From an uncultured Acidimicrobiia bacterium (GTDB lineage: Bacteria; Actinomycetota; Acidimicrobiia; Acidimicrobiales; AC-14), in contig CAWIIV010000024.1 of the NCBI GenBank assembly GCA_963836205.1, forward strand, positions 128,001 to 192,000: a stretch of 64,000 bases of DNA. Reading direction: 5' to 3'. Both the position numbers and the translations under genes were made by a program. Below the pieces are notes generated by a model. That model was not told where the DNA came from. It saw only the letters and a program-made list of their open reading frames with translations, and did no database searches. Positions 25,497-39,835 of this stretch are shown in pieces. Each line of letters starts with the position of its first letter. The stretch's first letter is position 1.

Positions 25497-26924
25497 TCAA
25501 CCGTTCTCCTTCGGAGTCATACGGCGGATCGCGTCCAACGCCCGGGCCAAGGCCTCCGGTGAGTCGGCGCCGCCCACCACCGTCCCGCCCTCGCCGACCT
25601 CCTCGACGTCCTGGTCGACGCGGACGCTGTCGCCACCCACAACGCCGATGATCGTCCCGTCCACGCGGTCGGCGTCCTGGTCGACGGCGACGGCCCCGGT
25701 CGCCCCCGGCTCGACCACGGCGCCCAGGACGAGGCCGCCGGCGGACACGTTGCCGACCCGCTGGCGGTAGAGGCGGGCCGATCCCGCCACCGCCTCCTCC
25801 CGGGCGGCCCGCGCCGAAACCGGCTCGAACAGCCGACCGCCGTGATCCCGCAGGTAGAGGACGGGGACGGCCCAGTCGCGGTCGTCGGCGTGGTCGCCGG
25901 TGGACACGGTGCGGATGGCGGTGCGGCCGAGGGCGACGGCCTCGTCGACGGTGAGTCCCGCCACCAATGCCCGGTAGAGGCCGCCGGCGAAGGCGGCCGC
26001 CCGCCGGTCGCCGATGGTGAACTGCATGGCGACCACCGCGGGGACGCCCCGCTGGACGAGGGCCGCCGCCGCACCCGCCCATACGTTGTGGTCGTCGCGA
26101 CGGCCGGTGTCGCAGGCGCCGAGGACTGCCAGGCGGACGCCCTTGGCCTGCACCATCTCCGCCACCCGCGCCGCCGGGACCACCTCGGCCGGGCCGCCGG
26201 CACCGCCGCCCCCCGCGAACACCAGCCCCCCGTCGGGGGTGCCGTGGCCGGCGAAGTGGAACACGTCCGCCCCCGCCGCCAGCGCCTCCAGCACCGAGGC
26301 CTGCCCGGCGTCGGCCACGAAGTCGGCGGTGACGCCGGCCACGCCGTCGAGGGCGGCGGCCAGGGCCTCCCGCTCGGCGGCCAGCGAGGGCAGGGGCGGG
26401 TACCCCTCGGGACTGGCGGTCGCCACCACCACCCGTCGACCGGCGGCCGCCTCGGCCGGCGCAGGCAACGGCGTGGCCACCGCCTGGTGGCGGACGATCG
26501 AGATCCGGGGGTCGAGGGCCAGGAACCCGGTCGCGTCGGGCTCGCCCGTGTGCCGGGCGACCCATGCCAGCTCCCAGGGGACGTCGGCCAGCTCGTCGGC
26601 CAGCCGGAGGCGGACCCGGAGGCCCTCGTCGTCGGCCAGCCGGGCCAGGCTGGCGTCGAACAGGCGCCGGGCACCGTCGGGGAGGAGCAGGCCGCCGAGG
26701 ATCGCGCCCAGCTCGATCTGGGCCCCGAGGTCGTCGTCGATCTGGCGGCGGTCGAGCCAGCCGATGCGAGGGGCGAGGTCGGCGGGCATCTTCACCCGCT
26801 CCTCGCGCTCGCCCTCGCCCGCGGGCGACTCGAACACCCGCACCCCGAAGGAGGCGATCAGCCCCTTCCGCCGCTTCACCTGGTCGGCGAGGACGACGAA
26901 GTCGAGGTAGCGGGTCAGCGGCAT
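25497..26924 (-). CDS. CHAT (caspase-like) domain protease with C-terminal beta-repeat tail
   Basis: LADVPWEL, catalytic FHFAGHG and VLGACDTG, VVAMQFTI, DWAVPVLY. Confidence 0.88.
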   Translation of the reverse strand: MPLTRYLDFVVLADQVKRRKGLIASFGVRVFESPAGEGEREERVKMPADLAPRIGWLDRRQIDDDLGAQIELGAILGGLLLPDGARRLFDASLARLADDEGLRVRLRLADELADVPWELAWVARHTGEPDATGFLALDPRISIVRHQAVATPLPAPAEAAAGRRVVVATASPEGYPPLPSLAAEREALAAALDGVAGVTADFVADAGQASVLEALAAGADVFHFAGHGTPDGGLVFAGGGGAGGPAEVVPAARVAEMVQAKGVRLAVLGACDTGRRDDHNVWAGAAAALVQRGVPAVVAMQFTIGDRRAAAFAGGLYRALVAGLTVDEAVALGRTAIRTVSTGDHADDRDWAVPVLYLRDHGGRLFEPVSARAAREEAVAGSARLYRQRVGNVSAGGLVLGAVVEPGATGAVAVDQDADRVDGTIIGVVGGDSVRVDQDVEEVGEGGTVVGGADSPEALARALDAIRRMTPKENG

Positions 26925-27967
26925 CGGGCCCGAACCCATCGACCGACGTCGGGCAGCCACCCGAGGGCCGCCAGGGGGGCGACGAAGCCGACCACCATGA
27001 CCACGCGGAACCCGGGCCGCAGCCATGGGAGCAGCAGTGCCACCGGCAGGGCCATGAGCAGGAGCAGGTGGAGGGTGCCCGCCAGCCGCAGTGACTCCGG
27101 CTCGCCGCCGGCAGCCACCGCGCCCGACAACGCCCAGCCCCCGGCCGCGCCCAGCCCGAGCACGGCCAGCAACGTCGCCGCCCGGGCCCCGAAACCGTAT
27201 GCGAGCCCGCCTCCGGCCCACGCCCCCACGACCAGCGCCACCAGCCCGACGTGGAGCACCCACGCGTAGACCACCGTCAGCTGCGGGAGTGAGATCCGCC
27301 CGTCGTCATCGGCCCGGGCGCCCATGGCGATGGCGGTCGACCAGGCCCCGCAGCGGGCGTCGTTGGCCAGATCGCGAAGCCCGCCGTGGACCCCGTTGGC
27401 GAGCACGATGAACACCGTCCAGAAGGCGAACAGCCACCACGTGAGCGCCGTCCACGGCCCCCGGACGGCGGCCCCGTAGAGGAACAACGACGCCCACCCC
27501 AGGCCCTGGGCCACGTCGAGCAGCCACGGCACGGGCGAGCGCTTGCCCCACCCGTCGTAGACGGCCATGAGGGCGAAGGCCACCACCAGGGCGGCCAACG
27601 CCCGTCCGCCCCCGTCCCCCGAGGCCACCGCCACCGCCAGGCTCGCCGCCGCCCCGGCCAACGCCAGCGCCAGCGCCACCCCTGGACCGACCGAGCCCCG
27701 CACGAGGGGGCTGACCGCCCGGCGGGGCTCGTGGCGGTCGATGGGCAGGTCGACCACGTCGTTGAGCAGGTAGGCGAACAGGTGGTAGCCGAGGGCGACC
27801 GCCACCAGCACGCCGGCCGTCCCCCACGGCAACGACGGCGACACCGACGCCGCCCCCAGCAGGGGCATGGCGAGCGTGCCGCCGAGGGCCGACAGCCGCA
27901 CGAACAGCCCGAGCGCCTGCAACCGCCGGTGGCGGCGCACCACCGGCGCCCACGTGGTCCGGGTCAC
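26915..27967 (-). CDS. UbiA-family prenyltransferase
   Basis: YLLNDVVDLPIDR (NDxxDxxxD) followed by SPLVRG; second motif RDLAND; multi-TM; GTGA coupling to the upstream ATPase. Confidence 0.82.
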   Translation of the reverse strand: MTRTTWAPVVRRHRRLQALGLFVRLSALGGTLAMPLLGAASVSPSLPWGTAGVLVAVALGYHLFAYLLNDVVDLPIDRHEPRRAVSPLVRGSVGPGVALALALAGAAASLAVAVASGDGGGRALAALVVAFALMAVYDGWGKRSPVPWLLDVAQGLGWASLFLYGAAVRGPWTALTWWLFAFWTVFIVLANGVHGGLRDLANDARCGAWSTAIAMGARADDDGRISLPQLTVVYAWVLHVGLVALVVGAWAGGGLAYGFGARAATLLAVLGLGAAGGWALSGAVAAGGEPESLRLAGTLHLLLLMALPVALLLPWLRPGFRVVMVVGFVAPLAALGWLPDVGRWVRARCR

Positions 27968-30900
27968 GCGTCGGTCCACCGTTCGAGGCGGTAGTCGGCC
28001 TTCCGCAGCATGTCCAGCGGGCCGGGCGTGATCTTGCGCACGAAGGCTTTGGCGTCCTTGGCCGTGGCCAGGGCGCCCAGGATCCCGGTCAGCAGCCCGA
28101 CCCGCATCTTGGGATGGAACAGCGCCTGGTGGACCCCGTTGTTGTAGAACCCGACCCACACCACGTAGCGCCGCACCACCTCCACGTCGCCCCGCTGGGC
28201 CACCAGCAGCCGCAGCCGGTCGGGGGCGCCGACGTCGCGCAGGAACAGGTCGACGGTGTCGGGGTGGAGGACTCTCATGGTGGCCAGGGTGGTGGCCAGG
28301 CTGTCCTCCACGGCCGGGTCGAGCAGCTGGGGGACCGACTCCCGCAACGTCTCCAGCACCGCCTGGGGATACGAGAAGCCGACCGGCGCCAGCCCCCGGA
28401 TGACCCGGTCGAGCAGGGCCGGATCGCCCCCGGCAGCCGCGCCCGACAGGAGCGTCCCCAGGTAGGTCATGGGCCCGCCCCGCTTGCCGTAGGCCAGCCC
28501 GAGGGGGAGGAGGTCGATCTCGAACGGGACGCTCGTCCCCCCGTCGGCGGCGAGGAACGCGGGCCGGTTCTCGTCCACGAACGTACGGGTGAGGTCCTCC
28601 AGCAACCCGACCCACCCGGTCGGTGCCTTCTCCACCAGCACCGCGAACGCCCACAGCGCCCACCGCCGCCCGTTGTCGTCGAGCCGGTCGAACAGCCCCC
28701 GGACGAAGGCGTCGGTGCCCGCGGGGTCGTGGAACGAGTGGATGGCAATCACCATCCCGCCCACCATCCGGGTCTGGGAGAAGGGCGACTGGAGGAGGGC
28801 GGCCAGGTCGTCGGCCCGAGCCCCCACGTCGGTGGCGGGGTCGACGAGCGGGACGACCCGGCCGATGGCCTTCCGGTCCGACGCGAAGAACCGGCGGGCC
28901 TCGTCGGGGCTGCTGAACAGGAACGTCTCCAGCAGGCGCTTCGCGTAGACCTGGGCCACCAACGGGGTGGCCACCTTCACCAGCGCCTTCACGTTCAGCA
29001 GGTGGAGCTTGAGCCGGTTGCGCAGCACCTCGTGCCAGAGGGCACTGGTCTGGGCCACCACGTCGGCCCGGTCGGGGTGGTTGACGTAGATCAGGATCGA
29101 CAGCCCGGCCAGGAAGTCGAGGACCAGGCGGTCGTTCTTGCGGAGGATCTGGCCGCTGATGGTGACCGTCGACGCCAGGTCGGTGAGGAGCTGCACCGGC
29201 AGGCAGCCGGGGTCGTCCGGCCGCCAGCGGAGGTAGGCGTAGAGGCAGGCCGCCTGGCGCACGACGTCGCGGCTGTCGACCGCCGCCCGCCGGAACACGT
29301 CGAGCGCCCCCGCGGCGGCGGCCGCCTTGAGGGCCACGTTCCAGGCGTCGGCCGATTGGGTGGCCAGCAGGCGGAGCATGGTGTCGAGCGCCCGCCGCCC
29401 GTTCGCCCCCCCGTCCTTGGCCGCCAGCTGCACCAGGGCCTCGGTGGCCAGGCCCCGCAGCTCGACCTCGGCTGCCACCGCCATCGTCTCCACCAGCCCC
29501 ACCAGCCGGTCCGGCCCACCGGGCGGGGGCGGGGCCAGGCCCACCTCGACCGCGGTGCGGACGTCGTCGTAGATCGCCGCCGGGCCGCCGGGCGCCTCCT
29601 GCTGGCGGGCCCGGAACCCGGGGTCGAGCACGACGTCGAACAGCTCGCCGGTGCGGGTGGCCCGGTCGGCGGGCCGGTCGAGGGCGCCCAGGCTGGCGGC
29701 CATGTGGCGGACGAGGTTGCGCAGGCAGTAGCCGTCGTCGCAGTTGGCCCAGTCACCACCCCACAGGTCGGCCCGCGCCCGCTGGTAGTGGCGGACGATG
29801 CGGTCGTGCTGCTTGGGCGGGGCCACGTAGAAGCGGTTGTCGGAGCCGCGGTCGTCGATGTAGCGGGTGGCCAGGAAGTCGGCCAGCGACCGGTGGTAGA
29901 GCCGCCACCCGCCGCCGCTGCCTCCACCTCCGGCGGTGCCGCCCTCGGGGGTCGGCTCCCACTCGGTGACCTGCTCCACCGATTGGAGGAAGCGGCTGAG
30001 GTCGTCGTCCTCCCACTCCAGCCAGCCCAGGAGGCGGTCGGCGGGGGCAGCCGGCAGGGCCACGCTGATGCTGCCCAGCAGGGGCTGGTAGCGCTCGCCC
30101 CAGGCTGGGCCCCGGTCGCGGTCGTCGAAGCCGGGGACGATGCGCTGGAGGTACTGGCGGTAGAGGTCGAACAGGCCGGTGGGCAGGTCGGCGGTGTCGG
30201 TGAGGGGACGGGTGCCCTTGGCCAGCTCGTCGAGCAGGAAGTCGATGAACAGGAAGTTCCCGGCCGCCTGCCGGGCCAGGCGCTCGACCACCGAGTCGAC
30301 GGTGGCCGGCGCCTCGATGCGGGCGGCCAGGCCGTCGGCGTCCAGCCGGGTGCGCACGAACCGGCGGACGTCGGCCTCGTTCGCCACCGCCCCGTCGCCG
30401 GAGGAGAGGTCGAGGTGGCGGACGTCGCCCCCGAACCCGTCCGTCAGCCGGGTCACGAGGGCCCGCTCGTTGCGGCTCGTGACCAGGAAGCGGACGTTGC
30501 CGGGCAGGCTGCCGGAGCGGGCCAGGAGCGACACGACCGTGGGCTCGGGGCCGCCGAACGCCTCGTCCACCCCGTCCACCAGGACGGCGAAGGTGCGGTC
30601 GGGGTGGGCCTCGGCCATGGTCCGCAGCGGCTCCACCACCCCCTGGGCGTAGCGGTCGCGGGCGTCGGGGATCTTGACGTCGAGGTCACCCACATGGCCG
30701 ACGACGGTGCCCTGGTTGACGCCCACCTCCTGGTGGACGAGCTCGGGCAGGTTGACCCGGAGGAAGGCGTCGGCGAACTCGGGGTGGCGGGCGGACAGTT
30801 GGTTGACCAGGCTGGTGACGAACCAAGCGGGGGTGATGTCGGCCCCGTCCTGGCCCCTGGTCATGCAGAAGCAGGCGGCCGACCACCCCGCCCGCACCCC

Positions 30901-31110
30901 TTCGAGGGCGGCGGCGTCGTCGGCCGCCGTTGGGGCCGGGCCCGCTCCCGCCAGCCAGGCGGCCAGCACCGACTTGCCCGATCCGGGCTCGCCGGTCAGG
31001 AGGAAGAGACGCTCGGACCCGGTGCCGAGCCACTCCGCCACCTGGTGCAGGGCCCACTCCCGGCCCACCAGGCCGGCCGCCTTCTGGCCGATGACGGCCG
31101 GGATGCGCAC
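27964..31110 (-). CDS. STAND/NACHT-like P-loop NTPase with C-terminal helical region
   Basis: LVGREW, Walker A GEPGSGKS, Walker B VLVDGVDE, RFLVTSR, AAGNFLF, LYHRSLADFL. Confidence 0.85.
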   Translation of the reverse strand: MRIPAVIGQKAAGLVGREWALHQVAEWLGTGSERLFLLTGEPGSGKSVLAAWLAGAGPAPTAADDAAALEGVRAGWSAACFCMTRGQDGADITPAWFVTSLVNQLSARHPEFADAFLRVNLPELVHQEVGVNQGTVVGHVGDLDVKIPDARDRYAQGVVEPLRTMAEAHPDRTFAVLVDGVDEAFGGPEPTVVSLLARSGSLPGNVRFLVTSRNERALVTRLTDGFGGDVRHLDLSSGDGAVANEADVRRFVRTRLDADGLAARIEAPATVDSVVERLARQAAGNFLFIDFLLDELAKGTRPLTDTADLPTGLFDLYRQYLQRIVPGFDDRDRGPAWGERYQPLLGSISVALPAAPADRLLGWLEWEDDDLSRFLQSVEQVTEWEPTPEGGTAGGGGSGGGWRLYHRSLADFLATRYIDDRGSDNRFYVAPPKQHDRIVRHYQRARADLWGGDWANCDDGYCLRNLVRHMAASLGALDRPADRATRTGELFDVVLDPGFRARQQEAPGGPAAIYDDVRTAVEVGLAPPPPGGPDRLVGLVETMAVAAEVELRGLATEALVQLAAKDGGANGRRALDTMLRLLATQSADAWNVALKAAAAAGALDVFRRAAVDSRDVVRQAACLYAYLRWRPDDPGCLPVQLLTDLASTVTISGQILRKNDRLVLDFLAGLSILIYVNHPDRADVVAQTSALWHEVLRNRLKLHLLNVKALVKVATPLVAQVYAKRLLETFLFSSPDEARRFFASDRKAIGRVVPLVDPATDVGARADDLAALLQSPFSQTRMVGGMVIAIHSFHDPAGTDAFVRGLFDRLDDNGRRWALWAFAVLVEKAPTGWVGLLEDLTRTFVDENRPAFLAADGGTSVPFEIDLLPLGLAYGKRGGPMTYLGTLLSGAAAGGDPALLDRVIRGLAPVGFSYPQAVLETLRESVPQLLDPAVEDSLATTLATMRVLHPDTVDLFLRDVGAPDRLRLLVAQRGDVEVVRRYVVWVGFYNNGVHQALFHPKMRVGLLTGILGALATAKDAKAFVRKITPGPLDMLRKADYRLERWTDA

Positions 31111-31183
31111 CCGCTCGGTCGTGCCGCACCCCCTTTCGCCCGTCGGATCGTGGTTTCCGTCTGCGCCAGACAGACTACGGACC

Positions 31184-31771
31184 ATGCCGGAGCCGACGAC
31201 GCCGCCCGCCCTCGCCGACCTCAAGCGGGCCCTGGTCGAGATCATCCTGGCCAAGGGTCACCTGCAGCTGGACGAGCCGGTCAAGCTGGCGTCGGGCGAC
31301 TGGAGCAGGGACTACATCGACAACAAGCGGGCGTTCGCCCTCGGCTCCGACCTGCGCCTGGCGGGCGAGGGCCTGGTGGCGCTGGCCCGGGACGAAGGAT
31401 GGGATTTCGACGCCGTCGGCGGGCTCACCCTCGGGGCCGACCACTTCTCCCACGTTGTGGCCATCGTGGCCGACCGCTCCTGGTTCGTGGTCCGCAAGGC
31501 GGAGAAGGACCACGGGACCAAGCGCAGGATCGAAGGGGCGGCGCTGGGTTCCGGCGTCCGGGTCGTCGTGGTCGACGACGTCGTCACCCGGGGCGGGTCG
31601 ATCCTCGACGCCTACCACGCGGTCAAGGAGTCGGGCGCCGAGGTGGTGGGCGTGACCACCCTCGTCGACCGGGGCCCGGCCACCGCCGCCGTCTTCGCCG
31701 GCCTCGGCGTCCCCTACCGGGCCCTCCTCACCTACGCCGACCTGGGAATCGAGCCCGTCGGCGGGCCCTGA
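31184..31771 (+). CDS. pyrE: orotate phosphoribosyltransferase
   Basis: KLASG, VGGLTLGAD, VRKAEKDHG, PRPP motif VVVDDVVTRGGS. Confidence 0.92.
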   Translation: MPEPTTPPALADLKRALVEIILAKGHLQLDEPVKLASGDWSRDYIDNKRAFALGSDLRLAGEGLVALARDEGWDFDAVGGLTLGADHFSHVVAIVADRSWFVVRKAEKDHGTKRRIEGAALGSGVRVVVVDDVVTRGGSILDAYHAVKESGAEVVGVTTLVDRGPATAAVFAGLGVPYRALLTYADLGIEPVGGP

Positions 31772-31775
31772 GCCG

Positions 31776-32360
31776 TCAGGACGACTGCGTGGCGATGACC
31801 CGGTCGTCGTCGGGACCGTCGTCGGTGCGGACGATCTCGGTCTGGGCGACGTCGAGAAACTCGGCGAAGGCGGCGTCGACCGCCGCCTGCAGGTCCAGGA
31901 GGGTCATGGAGGGCATCTCGTACCTCAGCGCCTCCAGGCTGTCCTCCACCGCCTTCAGCCGGTCGTGCCCCGCCTCCGACAGCGCCGCCGGCCCACCTGT
32001 CTCGACCACGATCTGCTTGGCCGAGGCCCACGTGACGCACCCGTCGCACTCGATGTTGGTGGCCAGCCCCTCGTTGTGGGGAGCGAACGTCGACGGAGGC
32101 TTGGTCACGAGGACAAGTTGGAAGGCGGCCGCGAGGGTCTGGCAGTCGGTGCACCTGGCCACTGCGTAGGCCCGGTTCTCCTCGTCGACGACGCCGTTGG
32201 CCGCCTTCCGGTAGTCGACGCTCGCCCGGACCATGGCCCGGTTGTCCTTGCGGTTGACGGCGACGACGACGTTGTCGTCGCTGGCCCCGGCGGCGGAGGG
32301 GGCGAGCACGACACTGGCGGCGATGACGGAGCTGAGAAGGGTCCGGGCCAGGCGGTTCAT
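31776..32360 (-). CDS. secreted protein with two CxxC-containing repeats
   Basis: Sec signal peptide (MNRLART...AAGA); ENRAYAVARCTDCQTLAAAFQLV and HNEGLATNIECDGCVTWASAKQIV. Confidence 0.8.
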   Translation of the reverse strand: MNRLARTLLSSVIAASVVLAPSAAGASDDNVVVAVNRKDNRAMVRASVDYRKAANGVVDEENRAYAVARCTDCQTLAAAFQLVLVTKPPSTFAPHNEGLATNIECDGCVTWASAKQIVVETGGPAALSEAGHDRLKAVEDSLEALRYEMPSMTLLDLQAAVDAAFAEFLDVAQTEIVRTDDGPDDDRVIATQSS

Positions 32361-32381: not shown

Positions 32382-34160
32382 TTAGCTGGCGGTGGTGGTC
32401 GGGGGGACGGATGTGGCGGACGACGGCTCGTCGTCGTCGGAGGCGGCCACGGTCGTGGTGGTAGACGGGGTGTCGTCGGTCGGGACGGTGGACTCGATGC
32501 CGTCGTCGACTCCATCGGTGTCGCCCAGTGCGGGAGCGGGAGGGGGCTCGGGCTCGGTGGGGCCCTCGCTCAGGTCCCAGGCCTGGCTGGGAGCGCCGTC
32601 GAACTCGGCCTCGGTGTCGGGGGTGAGGCCGGGACGCCCGGTGCCGACCTCCGAGACGGCCGCGACCGCATCGGCCACGGTGCCCCGCTCGCCGGGCTGG
32701 ATCGGCCGGTACTCGCCGTTGGGCCACCAGGTGAAGGCCAGCGCGCCCGCCAACCCGATCGTCAGCAAGGCCAGCAGCGGCCGTCCCAACCGGACCTCGC
32801 CCGCCCGCGACCAGCCCCACGAGCCCGCCTTGCGGCCGAAGCGGCTCAGCGCGTAGGCCGTACCAAGGACGGGCAGGGCGATGGCGATCACGCCCAGCAC
32901 ACCGACGACGACCGTAAGCCACTTCCCGGAGTCGAGGGCCACGCCCACGGCGTGCCATTGGAGGCCCACCGAGTCCCACGCGGTGGCGATCATCCGGGGG
33001 GCCGAGATCACCACTGTCAGCAGGCTGAACAGCAGCAGGGGCACGACGGTGAGCACCCAGAGGACCACCACGAACCGCACCCACGGCTTCAGCACCGACG
33101 CCTCCTTGCCCACCCGGCGGCCGGGCACGAAGCCGAGGAGGGTGGGCTTGATGCGGGCGAACAGGTCGGGCACCCCAACCAGGTCGGAGAGGATGTGGTA
33201 GCCGTCCATGCGGATGAACGGCAGCAGCTGGTGCACCATCTGCAGGACCTGCACCGGGATCAGCAGGAGGAGGGCCTCCACGCCCGTGACGGCCCACGCC
33301 CCGAACGTGGCCAGGGCGAAGATGGCGTTGAAGTACAGGCCGCCGAGGTCGGTGCGCAGCCGACCCCGCCGGTCGAGGCGGTAGGCGTCGGTGACGTCGG
33401 TGTAGAAGGCCGGCCACACCAGGTAGAGGCCGCAGCCCATCGCTCCCGGGCGCCCGCCCGAGTAGCGGCAGGCGGCGGCGTGGCCGAACTCGTGGAACGA
33501 GGCCGAGGCGATGGTGAGGGCGAACGTGGCCAGCATGAGCCCCGGCGAATAGAGCAGCTGGCGGGCCCCGGCGCCGACACCCCTCGCCCCGATCACCCAC
33601 GCCACCACGGCCACGAACCCGACCACGACGGGGAGGACCACCCACGGCCGGAACAGGATGGCGAACGGGGCGGTGAGGCGGTTCGTCCACTGCTCGCTGG
33701 TGAGCTGGAGGCGCAGGCGGAGGGCGAGGAGCGGGTTGGCTTTCCGGACCTGCGGGTCACTCCCGTCGGGGCTCTTGACCAGCCCCGCCGGGCGGAGCTT
33801 CTCGACCACCAGATAGCGAACGTTGTCGGCGCTGACCCGCCGCCCGATGCGCTCCCCGAGGGCGGCCGCGATCCGGGACTCGTCGCGGTGGCCGTCGATC
33901 TGCTCGAGGGTGGCGAACAGGAGCGGGGTCAGCTGGATGGTCTGGCCGTCGGCCCGGCGGACGAGGCAGGGGGGCTCCTTGTAACCGGATGCCTCGTAGT
34001 CGCCGATGAGCTCGACGCCCGTGGCCAGGCGGGGAACGTCGCCCCCGGCGCCGTCCCCAGCCGCGGGTGCGGTCCCGTTCTCGGCCGGCCTCCGATCGGG
34101 CCGGCGGCCCCGCCCCCGGACCCGGGGGATGCGCCGGGTGTCGTCCAGCTGTTGGGCCAT
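32382..34160 (-). CDS. M50/site-2 intramembrane zinc metallopeptidase with N-terminal PqqD/RRE-like domain (YydH/MpaP-like)
   Basis: FHEFGH, PAFYTDVT, QLLPFIRMDGY; N-terminal LVRRADGQTIQLT...IDG...KLRPAGLV resembles an RRE winged helix. Confidence 0.82.
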   Translation of the reverse strand: MAQQLDDTRRIPRVRGRGRRPDRRPAENGTAPAAGDGAGGDVPRLATGVELIGDYEASGYKEPPCLVRRADGQTIQLTPLLFATLEQIDGHRDESRIAAALGERIGRRVSADNVRYLVVEKLRPAGLVKSPDGSDPQVRKANPLLALRLRLQLTSEQWTNRLTAPFAILFRPWVVLPVVVGFVAVVAWVIGARGVGAGARQLLYSPGLMLATFALTIASASFHEFGHAAACRYSGGRPGAMGCGLYLVWPAFYTDVTDAYRLDRRGRLRTDLGGLYFNAIFALATFGAWAVTGVEALLLLIPVQVLQMVHQLLPFIRMDGYHILSDLVGVPDLFARIKPTLLGFVPGRRVGKEASVLKPWVRFVVVLWVLTVVPLLLFSLLTVVISAPRMIATAWDSVGLQWHAVGVALDSGKWLTVVVGVLGVIAIALPVLGTAYALSRFGRKAGSWGWSRAGEVRLGRPLLALLTIGLAGALAFTWWPNGEYRPIQPGERGTVADAVAAVSEVGTGRPGLTPDTEAEFDGAPSQAWDLSEGPTEPEPPPAPALGDTDGVDDGIESTVPTDDTPSTTTTVAASDDDEPSSATSVPPTTTAS

Positions 34161-34202: not shown

Positions 34203-34589
34203 TCAGCCGGCGACCGCGCCACCGCCCGACTGGTCGAGGTCGGCGTTCTGGGTGGCGTTGGCCACGGCCGTGCCGTCGAGGTCCTGGGAGATGATCGAGT
34301 CCTGGTCGGCCAGGGCGCCCGCCTCGGAGTCGACCGAGAGGACGTTGGCGCTGACGGCGGCGTCGATGGGCGCGGCCACGTTGGCGTTGGCCGCCACCGC
34401 GGCGTCGATGGGAGCGGCGACGTCGGCGTCGACGGCGAGGTCGACGTCGACGTTCAGCAGGGACGTCCCCAGCAGGGCCGACGGGTCGAGGGCATCGCCC
34501 AGCACCGACATCGCTTCCCGGTCGGGCACAGCGGTGACGTCCTGGGACTCGAGCTCGGCGTCGGTGATGCCGGCGGTTGCTTCCTTCAT
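34203..34589 (-). CDS. leader-bearing precursor protein 3 (acidic, Ala/Val/Asn-rich core)
   Basis: Leader ITDAELESQDVTAVPDREAMS; core paralogous to 34617-34976; GAGGAG RBS. Confidence 0.85.
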   Translation of the reverse strand: MKEATAGITDAELESQDVTAVPDREAMSVLGDALDPSALLGTSLLNVDVDLAVDADVAAPIDAAVAANANVAAPIDAAVSANVLSVDSEAGALADQDSIISQDLDGTAVANATQNADLDQSGGGAVAG

Positions 34590-34616: not shown

Positions 34617-34976
34617 CTACTGGTTGACGGTCGCGTCCTGGTTGGCGTTGGCGACGGCCGTGCCGTCGAGGTCCTGGACGATGATCGAGTCCTGGTCGGC
34701 CACGGCGGTGGCCTCCGACCCGACCGAGCCGATGTTGGCGGCCACGGCCGCGTCGATGGGGGCGGCCACGTTGGCGTTGGCCGCCACCGCGGCGTCGACC
34801 GGTGCGGCCAGGTCGAGGGCGAGGTCGAGATTGAGGTTGAGGTCGAGCAGCGACATCGCCTCCCGGTCGGGGAGGGCGGCGGCGCGCTCGGCGTCCATCT
34901 CGTCCAGCGACAGTTCGGGCTCGTCTAGCGACAGTTCGGGCTCGTCCAGCGACAGTTCGGGCTTCTGGGTGGTCAT
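34617..34976 (-). CDS. leader-bearing precursor protein 2
   Basis: Leader (PELSLDE)3 MDAERAAALPDREAMS; core AAPVDAAVAANANVAAPIDAAVAANIGS...; GGAG RBS. Confidence 0.85.
   Translation of the reverse strand: MTTQKPELSLDEPELSLDEPELSLDEMDAERAAALPDREAMSLLDLNLNLDLALDLAAPVDAAVAANANVAAPIDAAVAANIGSVGSEATAVADQDSIIVQDLDGTAVANANQDATVNQ
34899..34963. repeat. 21-bp tandem repeat x3 in the precursor 2 leader
   Basis: CTCGTCCAGCGACAGTTCGGG x3 with one substitution. Confidence 0.92.
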
Positions 34977-34987
34977 GTTCGGTTCTC

Positions 34988-35218
34988 CTAGTCCTCGTCC
35001 ACCTGGGTGATGATCACGATCTGGTCGGCGTCGGCGACGGCGACCGAGTTGGTGGATGCGATGTTCATGGCGGTCGCCTCGTTGATCGGCATGGCGAAGT
35101 TGTCGATCCCCAGGCCCGACCCGAGGTCGACCTTCGACATGGCCTGCCGCTCGGGCAAGGCCAACGCCTCCTCCGCTTCGAGGTCCTCGAGACTCAGTTC
35201 GTGGGCGCCGTTCGTCAC
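34988..35218 (-). CDS. leader-bearing precursor protein 1
   Basis: Leader ELSLEDLEAEEALALPERQAMS; core PINEATAMNIASTNSVAVADADQIVIITQ; GGGAG RBS. Confidence 0.82.
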   Translation of the reverse strand: MTNGAHELSLEDLEAEEALALPERQAMSKVDLGSGLGIDNFAMPINEATAMNIASTNSVAVADADQIVIITQVDED

Positions 35219-35331: not shown

Positions 35332-36345
35332 TCAGCCGGCGGGGAAGGAGGCCGCGATCTCGTCGTCCCACGTCACGTCGGTGGCGATCACGTCGGTGCG
35401 CAGGCCCTTGATCGACGGCTGGCGGAGGGTTCCGCCGTCGGTCACCTCGGTGTAGGCGACCTCGACCACGAGCAGCGGGCGGACCCAGTGGAGGGGGGCC
35501 CGGGGCGGGTTCACGAACGGTGACGACTCCACCTCGATCTGGGCGAAGAGCCGGGTGAGCTGGCGGATCATGTCCTCGTTGAGCCCGGAGCCGGCCTGGC
35601 CGGTGTAGAAGAGACGTTGCGGGCGGCCGGCGGCGTCGGCCTCCTCGGAGGCGACGTCGTACACGCCCAGGGCCAGCGAGCCGATGCTTGTCTCCCTCGA
35701 CCCGCTGCCGGTCGACCACCCGCCGACCACGAACTCGCGCCGCCGGCCGCACTTGACCTTTGACCAGGCGGTGGACCGCCTCCCGGGCAGGTAGGGGGCG
35801 TCGACCCGCTTGGCCATGAAGCCCTCCAGGCCGGCCTGGCGGCAGGCATCGATCAGCTCGGCGGGCGTGGCGTCGAGGACGGGGGCCGTCTGCCAGGCCC
35901 GGCCCTTGATGGCGAGCCCGTCGAGGATGCGCCGCCGCTCCGACTGCGGCCGGTCGACGAGCAGTTCGCCGTCGAGCCAGATGACGTCGAAGGCCACGAA
36001 CGAAACGGGCGTGTCGACCAGGAGGCGAGCGCTCGGCTGGACGACGTGCATCCGCCGCTGCAACCGCTGGAAGCTCGTCTGCCCCCTCTCGTTGAACGCC
36101 ACCACCTCCCCGTCGAGGACGGCCCGGTGGGGGTCGAGGGCGGCCGCCAGGCCCTCGACCTCGGGGAAGGTGGCGGTGGCCTCCAGGCCCCGCCGGTTGG
36201 TGAGGGTGACGTGGCCGCCGTCGACGGTGGCGATGATGCGCTGGCCGTCGAGCTTGGGCTCGAACATCCAGCCGTCGGGGTTCGCCGGGGCGCCGGTGCC
36301 GCCGGCGAGCATCGGGAGCAGGTGCGGCGGCGGGTCGTCCGGCAT
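35332..36345 (-). CDS. ligD: NHEJ ATP-dependent DNA ligase (LigD ligase domain, stand-alone)
   Basis: MFEPKLDGQR adenylation motif, LDGEVV, AFDVI, EGFMAKR, LRQPS. Confidence 0.9.
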   Translation of the reverse strand: MPDDPPPHLLPMLAGGTGAPANPDGWMFEPKLDGQRIIATVDGGHVTLTNRRGLEATATFPEVEGLAAALDPHRAVLDGEVVAFNERGQTSFQRLQRRMHVVQPSARLLVDTPVSFVAFDVIWLDGELLVDRPQSERRRILDGLAIKGRAWQTAPVLDATPAELIDACRQAGLEGFMAKRVDAPYLPGRRSTAWSKVKCGRRREFVVGGWSTGSGSRETSIGSLALGVYDVASEEADAAGRPQRLFYTGQAGSGLNEDMIRQLTRLFAQIEVESSPFVNPPRAPLHWVRPLLVVEVAYTEVTDGGTLRQPSIKGLRTDVIATDVTWDDEIAASFPAG

Positions 36346-36461: not shown

Positions 36462-38390
36462 ATGACGGGAGCCGGACGATGCCGCGCCGGGATGGTGGCC
36501 GTCCTCGTCGCCGGCGGGTTCCTGGGGCCGGCACCGGCGGCGGGGGCCGCCCCCGGAAAGGCCATCCTCCCGGTGGCGCTGGTCCTGGTGGCCGACCTCA
36601 CGTGGGCGACGGCTCCGCCAGCGATCGACGGCTACGCCCGGGCCAGCCTCTCGCTGCGCACCGCCGACGCCAAGCCGACCGCGGCCGACGTCTACCTCAC
36701 CCTGGGCAAGGGCGCCCGGTCGGGCGCGCCCGCGGCCGACGTGGCGGCCGTGGATCGGCTGGAACCCGTCCCTGGAGGCGGCGTGCGGCTGGCCGACTGG
36801 GCGTCGCTCCAGGATCACGACCGGGGGCTGCGCTACGGCGGTGCTCTGGGCTCGGTCGGCGGCGCCCTGGGTGACGCCGGCCGGCGGTGGGCCCTGGCCG
36901 GCGGCGGTGGGGCGGCGGCGGCCGTCGTGGCCGACACCGACGGTGTCCTCCCGCCGACCTACCCGGGCACACCTGCGGGCGTTGAGGCGGCGCTCGCGAC
37001 CGGTCTCGACGCCCTCGTGGTGGCCATCCCGGCCGACCGGCTGCTCGAGACGCTCCAAGTCCTCGACGGCGGGTGCACGCTCGTGGCCAGCGCGTCGACG
37101 CCCGACCAGGGCCGGCACCTCGGCGTCCTCGCCGCATCCCCCCGGTGCGGGTTGGGCACCGCCGGCCTCGGTTCCCCCTCGACCCACGACGCCCACCTGG
37201 CCACCCTGCCCGACGTGAGCCGGACGTTCCTCCACCTGGTGGGCGTGATCCCGCCGGCTTCGGTCGGCGGCGCCGTCGTCGAACCGACCTCCGCCATCGG
37301 TCGTCAGACCCTGGTCGAGCGAGACCGGAAGACGTGGACGTCGGACCGTTCGCGCACCGCCTTCGTGTGGCTGTTCGTCCTCCTCCACCTGGTGGGGGCG
37401 GTGGTGGCCGTGCGCCGGCGGCGGGCCCGGACGGTGGTCGCCTGCGTCCTCATGGCGATCCCGCCGGCCAGCCTGCTCATGATGATCGTCCCCTGGTGGC
37501 GGGGAGGGGCGGGGGCCGGGCTGGCGGTCGGTGGACTGGTGTCGGCGGTGATCGCGGCCGGGGGCCTGGCCGTCGCCCGGCGCGGCCCGGCCCTCGCCGT
37601 GGGCGCCCTGGCCGCCCTGACCGCGGCGGTGGTGGCGGTGGACGCCCTGTTCGCCAGCCCCCTCCAGGTCGACGCCCCCTTCGGCAACTCGCCGGTGGTG
37701 GCGGGGCGCTTCTTCGGCGTCGGGAACATCGGTTCCGGGTTCCTCGCCGCCGGACTGATCGTTGCCGGTGCCCTGGCCATCGACCGGTGGGGCCGGCGGG
37801 CGATCCCGTGGGTGGCGGGGGCGCTGTTCGCAGGCGTGGTGGCCGGGGGCGCCCCCCAGTTCGGGGCCGATGTGGGCGGCATTCTCTTCGCCGTGCCCGC
37901 CTACGGGGTGGTGCTCCTCGGTGCCAAACGGGCGCGGGTGACCCTGCGCCACGTGCTGCTGCTCGGCGCGGCCGCGGTGGTGGCGGTGGCCCTGTTCGCC
38001 GCCGTCGACCTGGCCCGGGACGCAGGCTCGCAGACCCACCTGGCCAAGGGGGTCGCCGGCCACGGGCTGGGCGACGAGATCGTGCGCAAGGCCACCCGGG
38101 CCGTCCAGACGATCAAGGCGCCGATGGCCAACCTGGTGGTCATCTCGGCCGCCGCCCTGATCTTGACCCGGTGGTCGCCCCGGTCCCGGCCCGCCCTCCG
38201 GTTCGGGGCCTACGCGGTCCTGGTCGCGGCGGTGTTGGGCTCGCTCCTGAACGACTCCGGCCTGAACGTGGCCGCCGCCGTCCTCGCGGTGGCCTGGCCG
38301 GCGGCGTTGGTGGTCGGCGCGGCGGCGGCCGCGCCCGCGCCGAAGGACCCGCGCCCGTGGCCCCCCGACCGCGCGCCGGTTGCCGCGTGA
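36462..38390 (+). CDS. multi-pass membrane protein with extracellular N-terminal domain
   Basis: GRFFGVGN, GADVGG, QTHLA and LNDSG motifs among many TM helices; coupled to the downstream glycosyltransferase. Confidence 0.7.
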   Translation: MTGAGRCRAGMVAVLVAGGFLGPAPAAGAAPGKAILPVALVLVADLTWATAPPAIDGYARASLSLRTADAKPTAADVYLTLGKGARSGAPAADVAAVDRLEPVPGGGVRLADWASLQDHDRGLRYGGALGSVGGALGDAGRRWALAGGGGAAAAVVADTDGVLPPTYPGTPAGVEAALATGLDALVVAIPADRLLETLQVLDGGCTLVASASTPDQGRHLGVLAASPRCGLGTAGLGSPSTHDAHLATLPDVSRTFLHLVGVIPPASVGGAVVEPTSAIGRQTLVERDRKTWTSDRSRTAFVWLFVLLHLVGAVVAVRRRRARTVVACVLMAIPPASLLMMIVPWWRGGAGAGLAVGGLVSAVIAAGGLAVARRGPALAVGALAALTAAVVAVDALFASPLQVDAPFGNSPVVAGRFFGVGNIGSGFLAAGLIVAGALAIDRWGRRAIPWVAGALFAGVVAGGAPQFGADVGGILFAVPAYGVVLLGAKRARVTLRHVLLLGAAAVVAVALFAAVDLARDAGSQTHLAKGVAGHGLGDEIVRKATRAVQTIKAPMANLVVISAAALILTRWSPRSRPALRFGAYAVLVAAVLGSLLNDSGLNVAAAVLAVAWPAALVVGAAAAAPAPKDPRPWPPDRAPVAA

Positions 38391-39835
38391 GCGTCGTCCG
38401 CCGGCCGGCGCCGACCACCAGCGACCGCCGGTGGGCGGTGCGCCTGGCGGTGGGCTTCGCCGCCGCCGCCCTCCTGCTCCACGTCCCCGGCCTGGTCGGG
38501 CGCCTGTTCAACTCCGACGAGGCCAGCCTGGCCACCATGGCCATGGAGATCCAGCGGGGCGGCACCCTCTACCACGAGACCGCCGACCGCAAGCCGCCGG
38601 CGGTCCCCTACCTGTACGCCCTGGTCTTCGACGCCACCGGCCGGCGCGACATCCGCCCGGTGCGCGCCCTCGCGTCCCTGGTGCTCGCGGGAACCGCCCT
38701 CCTCCTGGCCCTGGAGGCGAAGCGCCGCACCGGCAGCCGCACCGCGGCCGTCGCCGCCGGCGTGTTCCTCCTGGCCGGCACGGCGGCCAACTTCCCGGCC
38801 GACTCCCAGGCCGCCGGCTTCGAGATGTTCATGCTCCTGCCCATGACCGCGGCGGTGGTGGCCGCCGGGCGGGGGAAGGCGGTCCTGGCCGGGCTGGGCC
38901 TGGCCCTGGCCTGCCTGTGCAAGCAGACCGCGTTCCTCACCGCCCTGCCGGTGGCGTTCCTGCTGTACCGGGCGGGCGGGTGGCAGGCGGTGGCACGCGC
39001 AGCCATCGCCGCGGCCGGGGTGGTGGGGGTCACGGCCGCCTTCTTCGGCCCCCGGGACTTCCTCCTGTGGACGGTCACCGGCAACGGTGGCTACCTGGCC
39101 CTCCGGGGCTCGCTGTTGGCATCTGTCCTCAGGGGCGTGGGGATGACCACCGCCTTCGTGGTCCTGAACGGGGTGGTGATCTGGTGCTGCGTGGTCGCCC
39201 ACCGCCGGGGGGCGGTCGACTGGGACCTGTGGCTGTGGCTGGCCGGGGGAGCGGTGGCGGTGCTGGCCGGGTTCCGGTTCTTCGGGCACTACTACCTGCA
39301 GCTCGTCCCACCCCTGGCCCTCATCGGGGCCAGGGGCCTGCCCGCGGTGGCCAGGCACTGGCGGAGGGCGGCCGCGGGCCTGGCCCTGCCGGTGGTGGGG
39401 ATGTGGCTGTTCAGCTTCTCGCCGCCCAACTCCCGGGGCATCATCCCCTACCGCGCCGTCGCCGAACGGGTCCGGGAGCTGACCACGCCCGCCGACCGCA
39501 TCTTCGTGTGGGGCGAGTACCCCGAGATCTACTGGGCCGCCAACCGGGAACCGGCCACCCGCTTCATCCACACCGGGTTCGTCACCGGGAACTCCGGGGG
39601 CCGCGACGCGACGGCGGTGGAGGAGTCCGACGGGGTGCCCGGGGCGTGGGAGTTCCTGGCGGCCGACATCGCGGCCACGCCCCCCGACCTCATCGTCGAC
39701 ACCGGCCCGGCGTCGATCCGCAAGTCCGATCTCCACCCCCTCGAGGAGACCTTCCTGTGGGACGAGGTCGTCCGCCGGTACCGGCTGGTCGACGTGGTCG
39801 ACGGCGTCCGCCTGTACCTGCGCATCAATCCCTGA
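38387..39835 (+). CDS. GT-C (ArnT/PMT-like) membrane glycosyltransferase
   Basis: NSDEA, DRKPP, LCKQ, FFGHYYLQL, IFVWG. Confidence 0.8.
   Translation: MSVVRRPAPTTSDRRWAVRLAVGFAAAALLLHVPGLVGRLFNSDEASLATMAMEIQRGGTLYHETADRKPPAVPYLYALVFDATGRRDIRPVRALASLVLAGTALLLALEAKRRTGSRTAAVAAGVFLLAGTAANFPADSQAAGFEMFMLLPMTAAVVAAGRGKAVLAGLGLALACLCKQTAFLTALPVAFLLYRAGGWQAVARAAIAAAGVVGVTAAFFGPRDFLLWTVTGNGGYLALRGSLLASVLRGVGMTTAFVVLNGVVIWCCVVAHRRGAVDWDLWLWLAGGAVAVLAGFRFFGHYYLQLVPPLALIGARGLPAVARHWRRAAAGLALPVVGMWLFSFSPPNSRGIIPYRAVAERVRELTTPADRIFVWGEYPEIYWAANREPATRFIHTGFVTGNSGGRDATAVEESDGVPGAWEFLAADIAATPPDLIVDTGPASIRKSDLHPLEETFLWDEVVRRYRLVDVVDGVRLYLRINP

Follow-up and report, generated by a model that had tools for sequence, protein, structure and literature searches.

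A CxxC protein encoded beside leader peptides in Actinomycetota carries the peptide core motif and is a candidate template for peptide stacking

In a 64,000-nucleotide stretch of DNA from an uncultured Acidimicrobiia bacterium (contig CAWIIV010000024.1; the whole stretch is called the window below), we analysed a tight minus-strand row of five genes that encodes three precursor peptides (p1, p2 and p3), an HExxH membrane protease and a secreted protein with two CxxC motifs. The last of three strand-turn-strand units of the CxxC protein carries the motif of the peptide cores, with Cys in place of Ser at the turn, and the motif is conserved in both families. In related loci, the CxxC domain is encoded next to the peptide and protease genes or is fused to the protease itself. 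Structure prediction places the core of p1 on the edge of the last unit. In our favoured reading, to which we give a probability of about 50%, the CxxC protein is an outward-facing template module that docks leader-cleaved peptides by in-register β-stacking and starts or anchors a stack.

Results

Organisation of the gene row and of the CxxC protein

The genes follow each other in the order p1, p2, p3, protease and CxxC protein, with intergenic gaps of 11, 27, 42 and 21 nt. The CxxC gene comes last in the row, as the next gene, which is phosphoribosyltransferase-like and convergent, ends at 31771. The window has a high GC content of about 0.70-0.78, and its nearest relatives in a scan of one genome per species are uncultured Acidimicrobiia genomes. 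The CxxC protein consists of the following parts.

31776-32360, minus strand: 194-residue secreted CxxC protein (open reading frame, family alignment and AlphaFold2 model)
32283-32360, minus strand: putative signal peptide, residues 1-26 (MNRLAR..AAGA), with a basic n-region, a hydrophobic core and an AxA-type end
32205-32276, minus strand: unit 1, residues 29-52, strand-turn-strand without Cys; N30, A34, N36 and G40 are conserved
32106-32180, minus strand: unit 2, residues 61-85, with CTDC at 32142-32153 (alignment and model)
32001-32081, minus strand: unit 3, residues 94-120, with CDGC at 32037-32048; matches the peptide cores and is the predicted docking edge
31839-31976, minus strand: two helices, residues 129-147 and 154-174 (model); the second touches the co-folded peptide with one face
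31782-31835, minus strand: C-terminal strands, residues 176-178 and 187-193; the end, V-[AV]-[AT]-x-S-S, is conserved (model and alignment)

Unit 3 and the precursor cores share one motif

The regions of the precursors that enter the comparison are listed below.

34988-35218, minus strand: p1, a 76-residue precursor peptide with a GTG start, an acidic leader and an LPERQAMS motif at 35135-35158
35021-35089, minus strand: single-arch core of p1, PINEATAMNIASTNSVAVADADQ
34617-34976, minus strand: p2, a 119-residue precursor with LPDREAMS at 34851-34874 and the arch motif at 34692-34760
34899-34963, minus strand: tandem repeat within the p2 leader, 21 bp in 3.1 copies
34203-34589, minus strand: p3, a 128-residue precursor with VPDREAMS at 34506-34529 and the arch motif at 34302-34370

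All three precursors have an acidic N-terminus, a [LV]P[DE]R[EQ]AMS motif and then a core rich in Ala, Asn, Gln and Asp. A previous sequence-only reading of this DNA had aligned a 24-residue repeat of the secreted protein with the cores of p1 and p2. The strings that it quoted are present (CxxC protein residues 96-119, p1 residues 46-69 and p2 residues 75-98) and their gapless alignment is real; the second, shorter copy that it described corresponds to residues 62-84. Over 27 gapless positions, unit 3 has 12 identities with p1, 8 with p2 and 5 with p3. The shared register is P-x-[ND]-x-A-x-A-x-N-x-x-[SC]-x-x-[SC]-x-[AT]-x-A-x-A-x-Q, and the invariant columns of both families coincide on it: N62, C70, C73, T75, A79, Q81, N96, N102, C105, C108, A112, A114 and Q116 are invariant in 125 CxxC sequences, and N46, A48, A50, N52, S55, A60, A62, A64 and Q66 in 16 short precursors. 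The turn Cys are invariant in the 125 sequences while the precursors keep Ser there, which bears out the earlier statement that the CxxC of unit 3 falls on the SxxS of the cores.

When the CxxC protein was aligned locally with p1, the same stretch was found with a score of 49, which was reached by 3 of 500 p1 shuffles. The best local alignments with p2 and p3 lay elsewhere and were not significant (38/500 and 109/500 shuffles, respectively). Profile-profile comparison, which had been proposed as a check, matched the two families on the same register. Using hhalign, 48 CxxC domains and 15 short precursors gave a score of 28.4 (P = 1e-4) over 32 columns in the exact motif register. None of 60 column-shuffled profiles reached this score (mean 10.6, standard deviation 2.2, maximum 18.0), and the reversed profile scored 13.1. 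With larger alignments (125 domain rows and 16 short-precursor rows), the score was 35.1 over 37 columns, with a probability of 75.5% and a P value of 2.4e-5.

In 637 kb of related loci translated in six frames, a regular expression for the motif was matched 70 times, always on the operon strand and in precursors or CxxC domains. Within the window the expression matched p1 and p2 only; unit 3 of the window escapes the strict form of the pattern, as G occupies one of its A positions. In addition, we compared the positions outside the motif. In 40 loci, unit 3 resembled the precursors encoded in the same locus more closely than those encoded in other loci (-0.15 versus -3.93 ± 0.65, 0/2000 permutations), and the same was seen in 30 fused-type loci (-2.47 versus -4.17 ± 0.51, 0/2000 permutations), although this test is inflated by relatedness among the loci. 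The strand grammar of the motif, N-x-A-x-A-x-N / [AT]-x-A-x-A-x-Q, resembles the curlin kernel N-x-ψ-x-ψ-x-Q as it is given in the available part of PMC10192328.

Predicted fold of the CxxC protein

The AlphaFold2 model of the CxxC protein, based on 125 aligned sequences, had a predicted local distance difference test score (pLDDT) of 89 and a predicted template modelling score (pTM) of 0.81. A low-confidence helix at residues 3-18, within the signal peptide, is followed by the three units (29-36/42-52, 61-68/74-85 and 95-102/109-120), a short strand, helices 129-147 and 154-174, and strands 176-178 and 187-193. In the model, units 2 and 3 turn at their CxxC motifs, and unit 1 has D and A at these places. 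This third, Cys-less unit, which is in register with the other two, is new relative to the sequence-only reading. When the domain profile was aligned with itself, the match between units 2 and 3 was weak (score 14.9, P = 0.15) and no match to unit 1 emerged, so the three-unit description rests on conserved columns and on the model. Unit 3 is closer to the peptides (score 28-35) than to its sister unit 2.

Neither the CxxC domain nor the precursors had a relative in Pfam, NCBIfam or the Protein Data Bank (PDB) in scans of these proteins and their relatives, and profile searches of PDB sequences found none. The best fold match of the model was the FapC amyloid (9u4u_A, E = 0.087, template modelling score (TM) 0.14), which is below significance. 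The weak top matches comprised FapC, β-helical ice-binding proteins and SufBD, all with TM ≤ 0.28, and we take them as a hint of the fold class. With regard to a curlin-type stacked arch, the sequence pattern and the three strand-turn-strand units fit, while the β-solenoid fold matches are not significant.

Predicted docking of the p1 core on unit 3

Co-folding of the two families was another proposed check. Residues 27-194 of the CxxC protein (125-row alignment) were co-folded with residues 29-76 of p1 (16-row alignment), together with three controls. The interaction score derived from predicted aligned errors (ipSAE) was 0.87, 0.87 and 0.88, versus 0.01 for the best of the three controls. 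Contact agreement among the runs was at least 92%, and the partner pLDDT was at least 72. The mark for this score is reached by 116 of 157 solved complexes and by 2 of 215 mismatched pairs, and is roughly valid here, as the alignments were custom. Because the protein has no PDB relative by sequence or fold, the score is not the memory of a solved complex.

The predicted interface comprises protein residues 90-122, 64, 66 and 68 and one face of helix 154-176, and peptide residues 39-72. The contacts with the lowest error (110-60, 112-62, 114-64, 116-66, 117-67 and 118-68) pair homologous positions with an offset of 50, and further contacts run across the arch, between A100/N102 and A60/A62. Such contacts are as expected if the peptide is stacked in register and in parallel on unit 3 as a fourth arch, and those across the arch are more readily accounted for by stacked arches than by a flat meander sheet. 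Binding between the peptide and the domain is supported by the model, with continuous in-register stacking of the p1 core on unit 3 as predicted. It did not favour the earlier suggestion that the helical tail caps growth, since the face of helix 154-176 lies alongside the docked peptide and leaves the unit-3 edge unblocked.

The CxxC domain is linked or fused to the protease in Actinomycetota

The CxxC protein has 92 close homologues, many of which carry the Joint Genome Institute (JGI) name 'putative peptide zinc metalloprotease protein' because the domain is often fused to the protease. A profile search with the CxxC domain in 1.84 billion representatives gave 1875 matches at E ≤ 1e-3 and 1570 at E ≤ 1e-10, each of them a cluster at 50% identity, with listed lengths of 165-989 residues. 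The corresponding homologue search with the precursor p2 gave 1741 clusters. In the ESM Atlas, the CxxC protein matched unnamed actinobacterial clusters only.

The scan of one genome per species, which used two peptide patterns and is not exhaustive, yielded 50 loci (51 counting the window), all in Actinomycetota. The taxa include Acidimicrobiia, Geodermatophilaceae, Pedococcus/Phycicoccus/Oryzobacter, Georgenia, Nocardioidaceae, Planosporangium, Solirubrobacteraceae and Egibacteraceae. After removal of three loci whose contig ends before the upstream region, 48 were informative. In 36 of these 48, the HExxH protease itself carries the CxxC domain at its C-terminus (open reading frames of about 760-1070 residues), which answers the question, raised by the sequence-only reading, of whether homologues are joined to the C-terminus of the protease. 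The domain is encoded by a gene of its own, immediately downstream, in the other 12, namely the window, eight Acidimicrobiia-type loci, L020, L027 and the frameshifted L049. The N-terminal signal peptide of the window's CxxC protein is missing from the fused forms.

Several separate forms have features of their own. In L004 (2055-5976), a separate CxxC gene follows the peptides rather than the protease, and a second CxxC gene is present at the contig start. The separate CxxC protein of L020 (4251-7759) ends in a His/Asp-rich stretch followed by a Pro/Thr-rich tail. The CxxC protein of L027 is also separate, and the protease reading frame of this locus (4363-6855) seems to run into a ParA/MinD-like P-loop ATPase segment (KGGAGKTT) in place of the usual tail; this join is either a real fusion or an over-long reading-frame call in high-GC DNA.

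A precursor with the leader motif is encoded upstream in 47 of the 51 loci. Fused-type loci have one precursor of about 200 residues, with two modules and a low-complexity linker; in these two-module fusions, which occur in Actinomycetes, module 1 is the counterpart of p2 and module 2 that of p3. Single-arch precursors of 67 to about 76 residues, three or four per locus, are encoded in L004 and L020. Orthologues of p1 occupy the same position in the eight Acidimicrobiia-type loci. Antisense shadows aside, no other gene family was common to more than 13 of the 51 loci.

Additional observations were made on the precursors. In L012 (4400-5374), the linker between the modules consists of about 200 residues of Gly/Tyr repeats of the GGYGGTGGYGG type, reminiscent of structural fibre proteins. 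The 21-bp unit in the p2 leader of the window (95% matches) encodes ELSLDEP three times; given this tandem repeat and a length of 119 residues, as against 104-105 in the closest p2 homologues, the leader has undergone a recent in-frame expansion. Five precursors (P0248, P0254, P0264, P0311 and P0320) are labelled 'peptidoglycan-binding protein' in NCBI records, and the ESM Atlas clusters of p2, which have no Pfam family, are auto-named 'peptidoglycan-binding protein family'. Pfam and NCBIfam scans of the precursors found neither a peptidoglycan-binding domain nor any other, and the label looks unfounded.

The protease and the location of the CxxC domain

The following features were assigned to the protease, whose N-terminal region resembles a recognition element (RRE) for RiPPs, peptides that are made by ribosomes and modified after translation.

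32382-34160, minus strand: 592-residue membrane metalloprotease, N-terminal RRE-like region and protease core
33099-33974, minus strand: part of the protease aligned to NF041824 (NCBIfam model match)
33480-33494, minus strand: HEFGH of the protease
32385-32720, minus strand: acidic, Pro/Thr-rich C-terminal tail, probably outside the cell

The nearest curated model is NF041824, the daptide intramembrane metalloprotease, which was matched at residues 63-354 with E = 4.6e-35 and 121.5 bits, compared with a cut-off of 300; relatives of the protease score 92.7-122.2 bits. The YydH/LiaK model was matched more weakly. The sequence-only reading had called this protein an M50 peptidase. The name is only loosely right. 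The protein has HEFGH at residues 223-227 and RMDGYH at 319; Pfam PF02163 (Peptidase_M50) was matched with E = 0.18 and 11.5 bits only (cut-off 27.2), no Pfam family was above threshold, and the nearest curated model, that of the daptide protease, is itself matched below its cut-off.

A crude hydropathy scan found about seven hydrophobic segments in the protease. The loop ahead of the last segment has five K/R and one D/E, and the tail beyond it has three K/R and 23 D/E. This charge pattern, with the RRE-like N-terminus in the cytoplasm, would put the tail and the fused CxxC domain outside the cell. In the split form, a signal peptide stands in place of the tether (peak hydropathy 1.79 at residues 8-26 by a crude hydropathy script), so the fused and split forms agree on an outside location, which is deduced from sequence features.

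Discussion

A proposed template module for leader-cleaved peptides

The system would consist of one to four small acidic peptides, rich in Ala, Asn and Gln, that carry an LP[DE][RK]E[AV][MI]S leader, of an HExxH intramembrane protease that bears an RRE and is a relative of the daptide protease, and of a three-rung strand-turn-strand domain. This last domain either forms the extracytoplasmic C-terminus of the protease or, in the window, is a separate and presumably Sec-exported protein encoded 21 nt downstream. Unit 3, as the last rung, copies the peptide arch with Cys replacing Ser at the turn, where the cysteines are probably oxidised. After removal of the leader, presumably by the protease, the core may dock on the free edge of unit 3 as a fourth rung by parallel in-register β-stacking, as predicted for p1, and the side of helix 154-176 may steady it. 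The peptide would thus be captured, and most likely would start or anchor a further stack at the cell surface, if growth proceeds beyond one peptide.

A number of results weigh against this reading. The profile-match probability of 57-75% is moderate. The longer precursors of the p2/p3 type keep the register when compared with the domains, but the match is weak (score 18.1, probability 2%, 1/60 shuffles), and the best-matching peptides, those of the p1 type, are confined to Acidimicrobiia-type loci; within the eight loci of this type, the own-locus similarity was not significant (172/2000 permutations). The co-fold covers one peptide-domain pair, that of p1, with one copy of the peptide. AlphaFold2 predicted p2 alone as a long helix at residues 37-83 with low confidence (pLDDT 63.8, pTM 0.26) and no β stack. 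Foldseek of the CxxC model against the PDB gave no match at E ≤ 0.001, and a description of the domain as a solenoid takes its support from the listed contacts and from the type of the weak fold matches. The cores are strongly acidic (net charge -7, -11 and -16) and not membrane-like (maximum hydropathy 1.1-1.3), and no conserved exporter was found around the 51 loci, so the route of the cores to the outside is unexplained. A conserved modification enzyme was not found around these loci either. Finally, the free-standing form of the CxxC protein has no visible anchor.

We also consider a bolder version, which is tentative and which we regard as unlikely to hold in full. Here the RRE protease would recognise the precursors in the cytoplasm, cut the leader and pass the core outward without a separate transporter, and its own C-terminal domain would template a cross-β surface fibre, so that protease, exporter and nucleator are one polypeptide. 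If so, and this is equally speculative, it would be a Gram-positive functional-amyloid pathway of an undescribed kind that is widespread in Actinomycetota.

Alternative explanations

Among the alternatives, the one we take most seriously, while judging it unlikely, is that the domain is a receptor or feedback sensor, which binds one released peptide by strand addition and forms no polymer but signals to the protease for autoinduction or as a stop. The covalent connection to the protease in 36/48 loci is in line with this possibility, as is the co-fold, in which one peptide completes the domain with the helix alongside. Many S2P-type (site-2) proteases have regulatory extracytoplasmic domains. 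In the split form of the window, however, the domain is a free secreted protein, which could not transfer a signal unless it re-bound the protease, and the highly repetitive, multi-module precursors of about 200 residues with two modules look more like building material.

The domain could also be a terminator or cap that binds the end of a growing stack and stops growth, either setting its length or preventing runaway assembly near the membrane. This is improbable in our estimation. The docking geometry would be the same as for a nucleator, and further addition at the opposite end could be blocked by the helices, the C-terminal strands and the unit-1 end; residues 1-63 and 177-194 are not listed in the co-fold interface, which is not evidence against contact. 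A domain fused to the protease by a long linker would nevertheless lie at the foot of the stack, a place better suited to starting or anchoring it, even though the start and cap roles share all of the present data. Both the receptor and the cap share this geometry with a template, from which they differ only in what follows the first peptide.

We give similarly low credence to shared descent or convergence without contact, in which the domain arose from a duplicated peptide gene or both families use a common Ala-rich hairpin. Both are biased towards Ala, Asn and Gln, the peptides have no demonstrated export route, and the profile probability is as noted above. None of the composition-keeping shuffles reached the observed score, however, and linkage is strict across distant classes of the phylum. 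The co-fold score far above the controls and the excess of own-locus over cross-locus similarity also argue against a resemblance without contact.

A self-protection or chaperone role, in which the domain sequesters the producer's own bacteriocin-like helical peptide at the surface, seems more doubtful again. The protease is nearest to the daptide protease, hydrophobic peptides are made with such a protease according to the available text of the daptide preprint, and p2 alone is predicted to be helical. On the other hand, the cores are strongly anionic and only moderately hydrophobic, and neither an ABC transporter nor modification enzymes are conserved in the neighbourhood, in which the system departs from the daptide clusters of that text.

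Least probable is that the domain serves mainly as a metal-binding module, with the two CxxC turns forming a four-Cys zinc site of the zinc-ribbon kind in a structural or redox role: the four invariant Cys do lie in two hairpin turns of neighbouring units, but the exported location, where disulfides are usual, argues for disulfides, and the Ser-x-x-Ser at the matching places of the peptides indicates that turn geometry and not metal is shared. A metal site is compatible with a template function, and at the CxxC turns themselves a disulfide and a metal site are equally possible.

Comparison with known systems

In Bacillus subtilis, the TapA-SipW-TasA operon codes for the subunit of a fibre together with a peptidase dedicated to processing and an accessory protein, which donates a strand to start or anchor the fibre. 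The row analysed here likewise combines putative subunits, a probable processing peptidase and a candidate starter or anchor in one operon. The folds are unrelated, and SipW is a signal peptidase that acts on Sec substrates, whereas here the peptides lack a signal peptide and the protease itself often includes the accessory domain. In Streptomyces, long chaplins anchor short chaplins; they are Sec-exported and sortase-anchored, with no leader protease. The present system would resemble them as a surface amyloid of actinobacteria whose free subunits share their domain with a cell-bound protein; Pfam scans of the CxxC protein, the precursors and their relatives found no chaplin match.

The sequence-only reading had drawn an analogy with CsgB and CsgA. 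Its working principle is retained, while membership is not supported: Pfam scans of the CxxC protein, the three precursors and their relatives found no curlin family at E up to 0.1 or 1. In the available part of PMC10192328, CsgB is a minor protein with the same strand-arc-strand repeat as CsgA and offers it a matching edge. The subunit-like repeat in the template, the Asn/Gln strand ends and the alternating small residues are common to that description and the present system. There is no sequence relationship, the host is Gram-positive and without CsgE/F/G-type partners, the subunits are leader peptides probably cut by an RRE-HExxH protease, and the template, usually joined to the protease, contains helices and turns with Cys.

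As described in the accessible portion of the daptide preprint, the protease MpaP has an RRE fused N-terminally to an intramembrane site-2 protease, and several similar short precursors with a conserved leader motif are encoded beside it. The present row shares the NF041824 match and the several adjoining leader-motif precursors. It differs in that the 121.5 bits of the protease are far under the 300-bit cut-off for membership, in the leader motif (LP[DE][RK]E[AV][MI]S here, ELExMEAP in daptides), in the C-termini of the precursors (D, Q, G and others here, an invariant Thr in daptides), and in having no dehydrogenase, aminotransferase, methyltransferase or ABC transporter conserved nearby in the 51 loci. 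That portion of the preprint does not describe a CxxC domain for daptide proteases. Bacterial amyloid signalling motifs that are common to adjacent NLR and effector genes, as reported in the part of 10.1101/2020.01.06.895854 available to us, are similar in that a short amyloid-type motif is repeated in neighbouring genes as the basis of templating; those proteins are cytoplasmic and tied to NLRs and effectors, whereas the motif here is found in a probably exported domain and in leader peptides.

Judged by sequence, the CxxC system belongs to none of the curlin, chaplin and daptide families. The best-supported analogy is that the CxxC module would work like CsgB for CsgA or TapA for TasA without belonging to either family, in a template system in which a daptide-type RRE protease would carry out processing in leader-peptide fashion and in most loci contains the template itself. 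Templating by a subunit look-alike is known from curli, Fap and TasA. A template built into a protease, or one combined with leader-peptide (RiPP-style) processing, has not been described before. Our literature searches, with most subscription journals outside their coverage, found no paper on the peptide/protease/CxxC system. For site-2 or intramembrane proteases, a term search in the accessible part of the mSystems paper on RRE definition (PMC12710340) turned up no passage.

Should the docking prove real, it offers a model, open to direct testing, for a new surface structure of common soil-dwelling actinobacteria, among them Geodermatophilaceae, Intrasporangiaceae and Acidimicrobiia. The template and its subunit would then be a compact pair to study, and RRE-protease fusions would have a new role outside the maturation of natural products.

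Neighbouring genes in the window

The STAND NTPase, CHAT protease, UbiA-type, ligase and phosphoribosyltransferase genes were considered as parts of the system and rejected, as they are not conserved in related loci. Directly beyond the operon's convergent neighbour, 25497-31254 on the minus strand comprises the first three of these: a STAND/NACHT-like NTPase of 1096 residues (27964-31254; NPHP3_N at 3.9e-12, and AAA_16), a UbiA-type prenyltransferase reading frame within 26915-28663 (E = 1e-14) and a CHAT-domain protease (25497-27263, E = 1.3e-30). The pair of NTPase and CHAT protease resembles a defence or cell-death module and is not kept beside the peptide system in other loci.

On the other side, 113 nt upstream of p1, a protein with an ATP-dependent DNA ligase domain of the non-homologous end joining type is encoded at 35332-36345 on the minus strand (TIGR02779, 238.3 bits versus a cut-off of 227.75), and it probably has no relation to the operon. 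Farther upstream, a large membrane protein without any Pfam family is encoded on the plus strand at 36462-38390. The C-terminal half of a long overlapping reading frame (36462-39835 region, plus strand) resembles PMT_2 glycosyltransferases with E = 1.7e-05 and 25.5 bits, slightly under the cut-off of 26.1. The membrane protein and the PMT_2-like reading frame point to cell-envelope genes near the operon.

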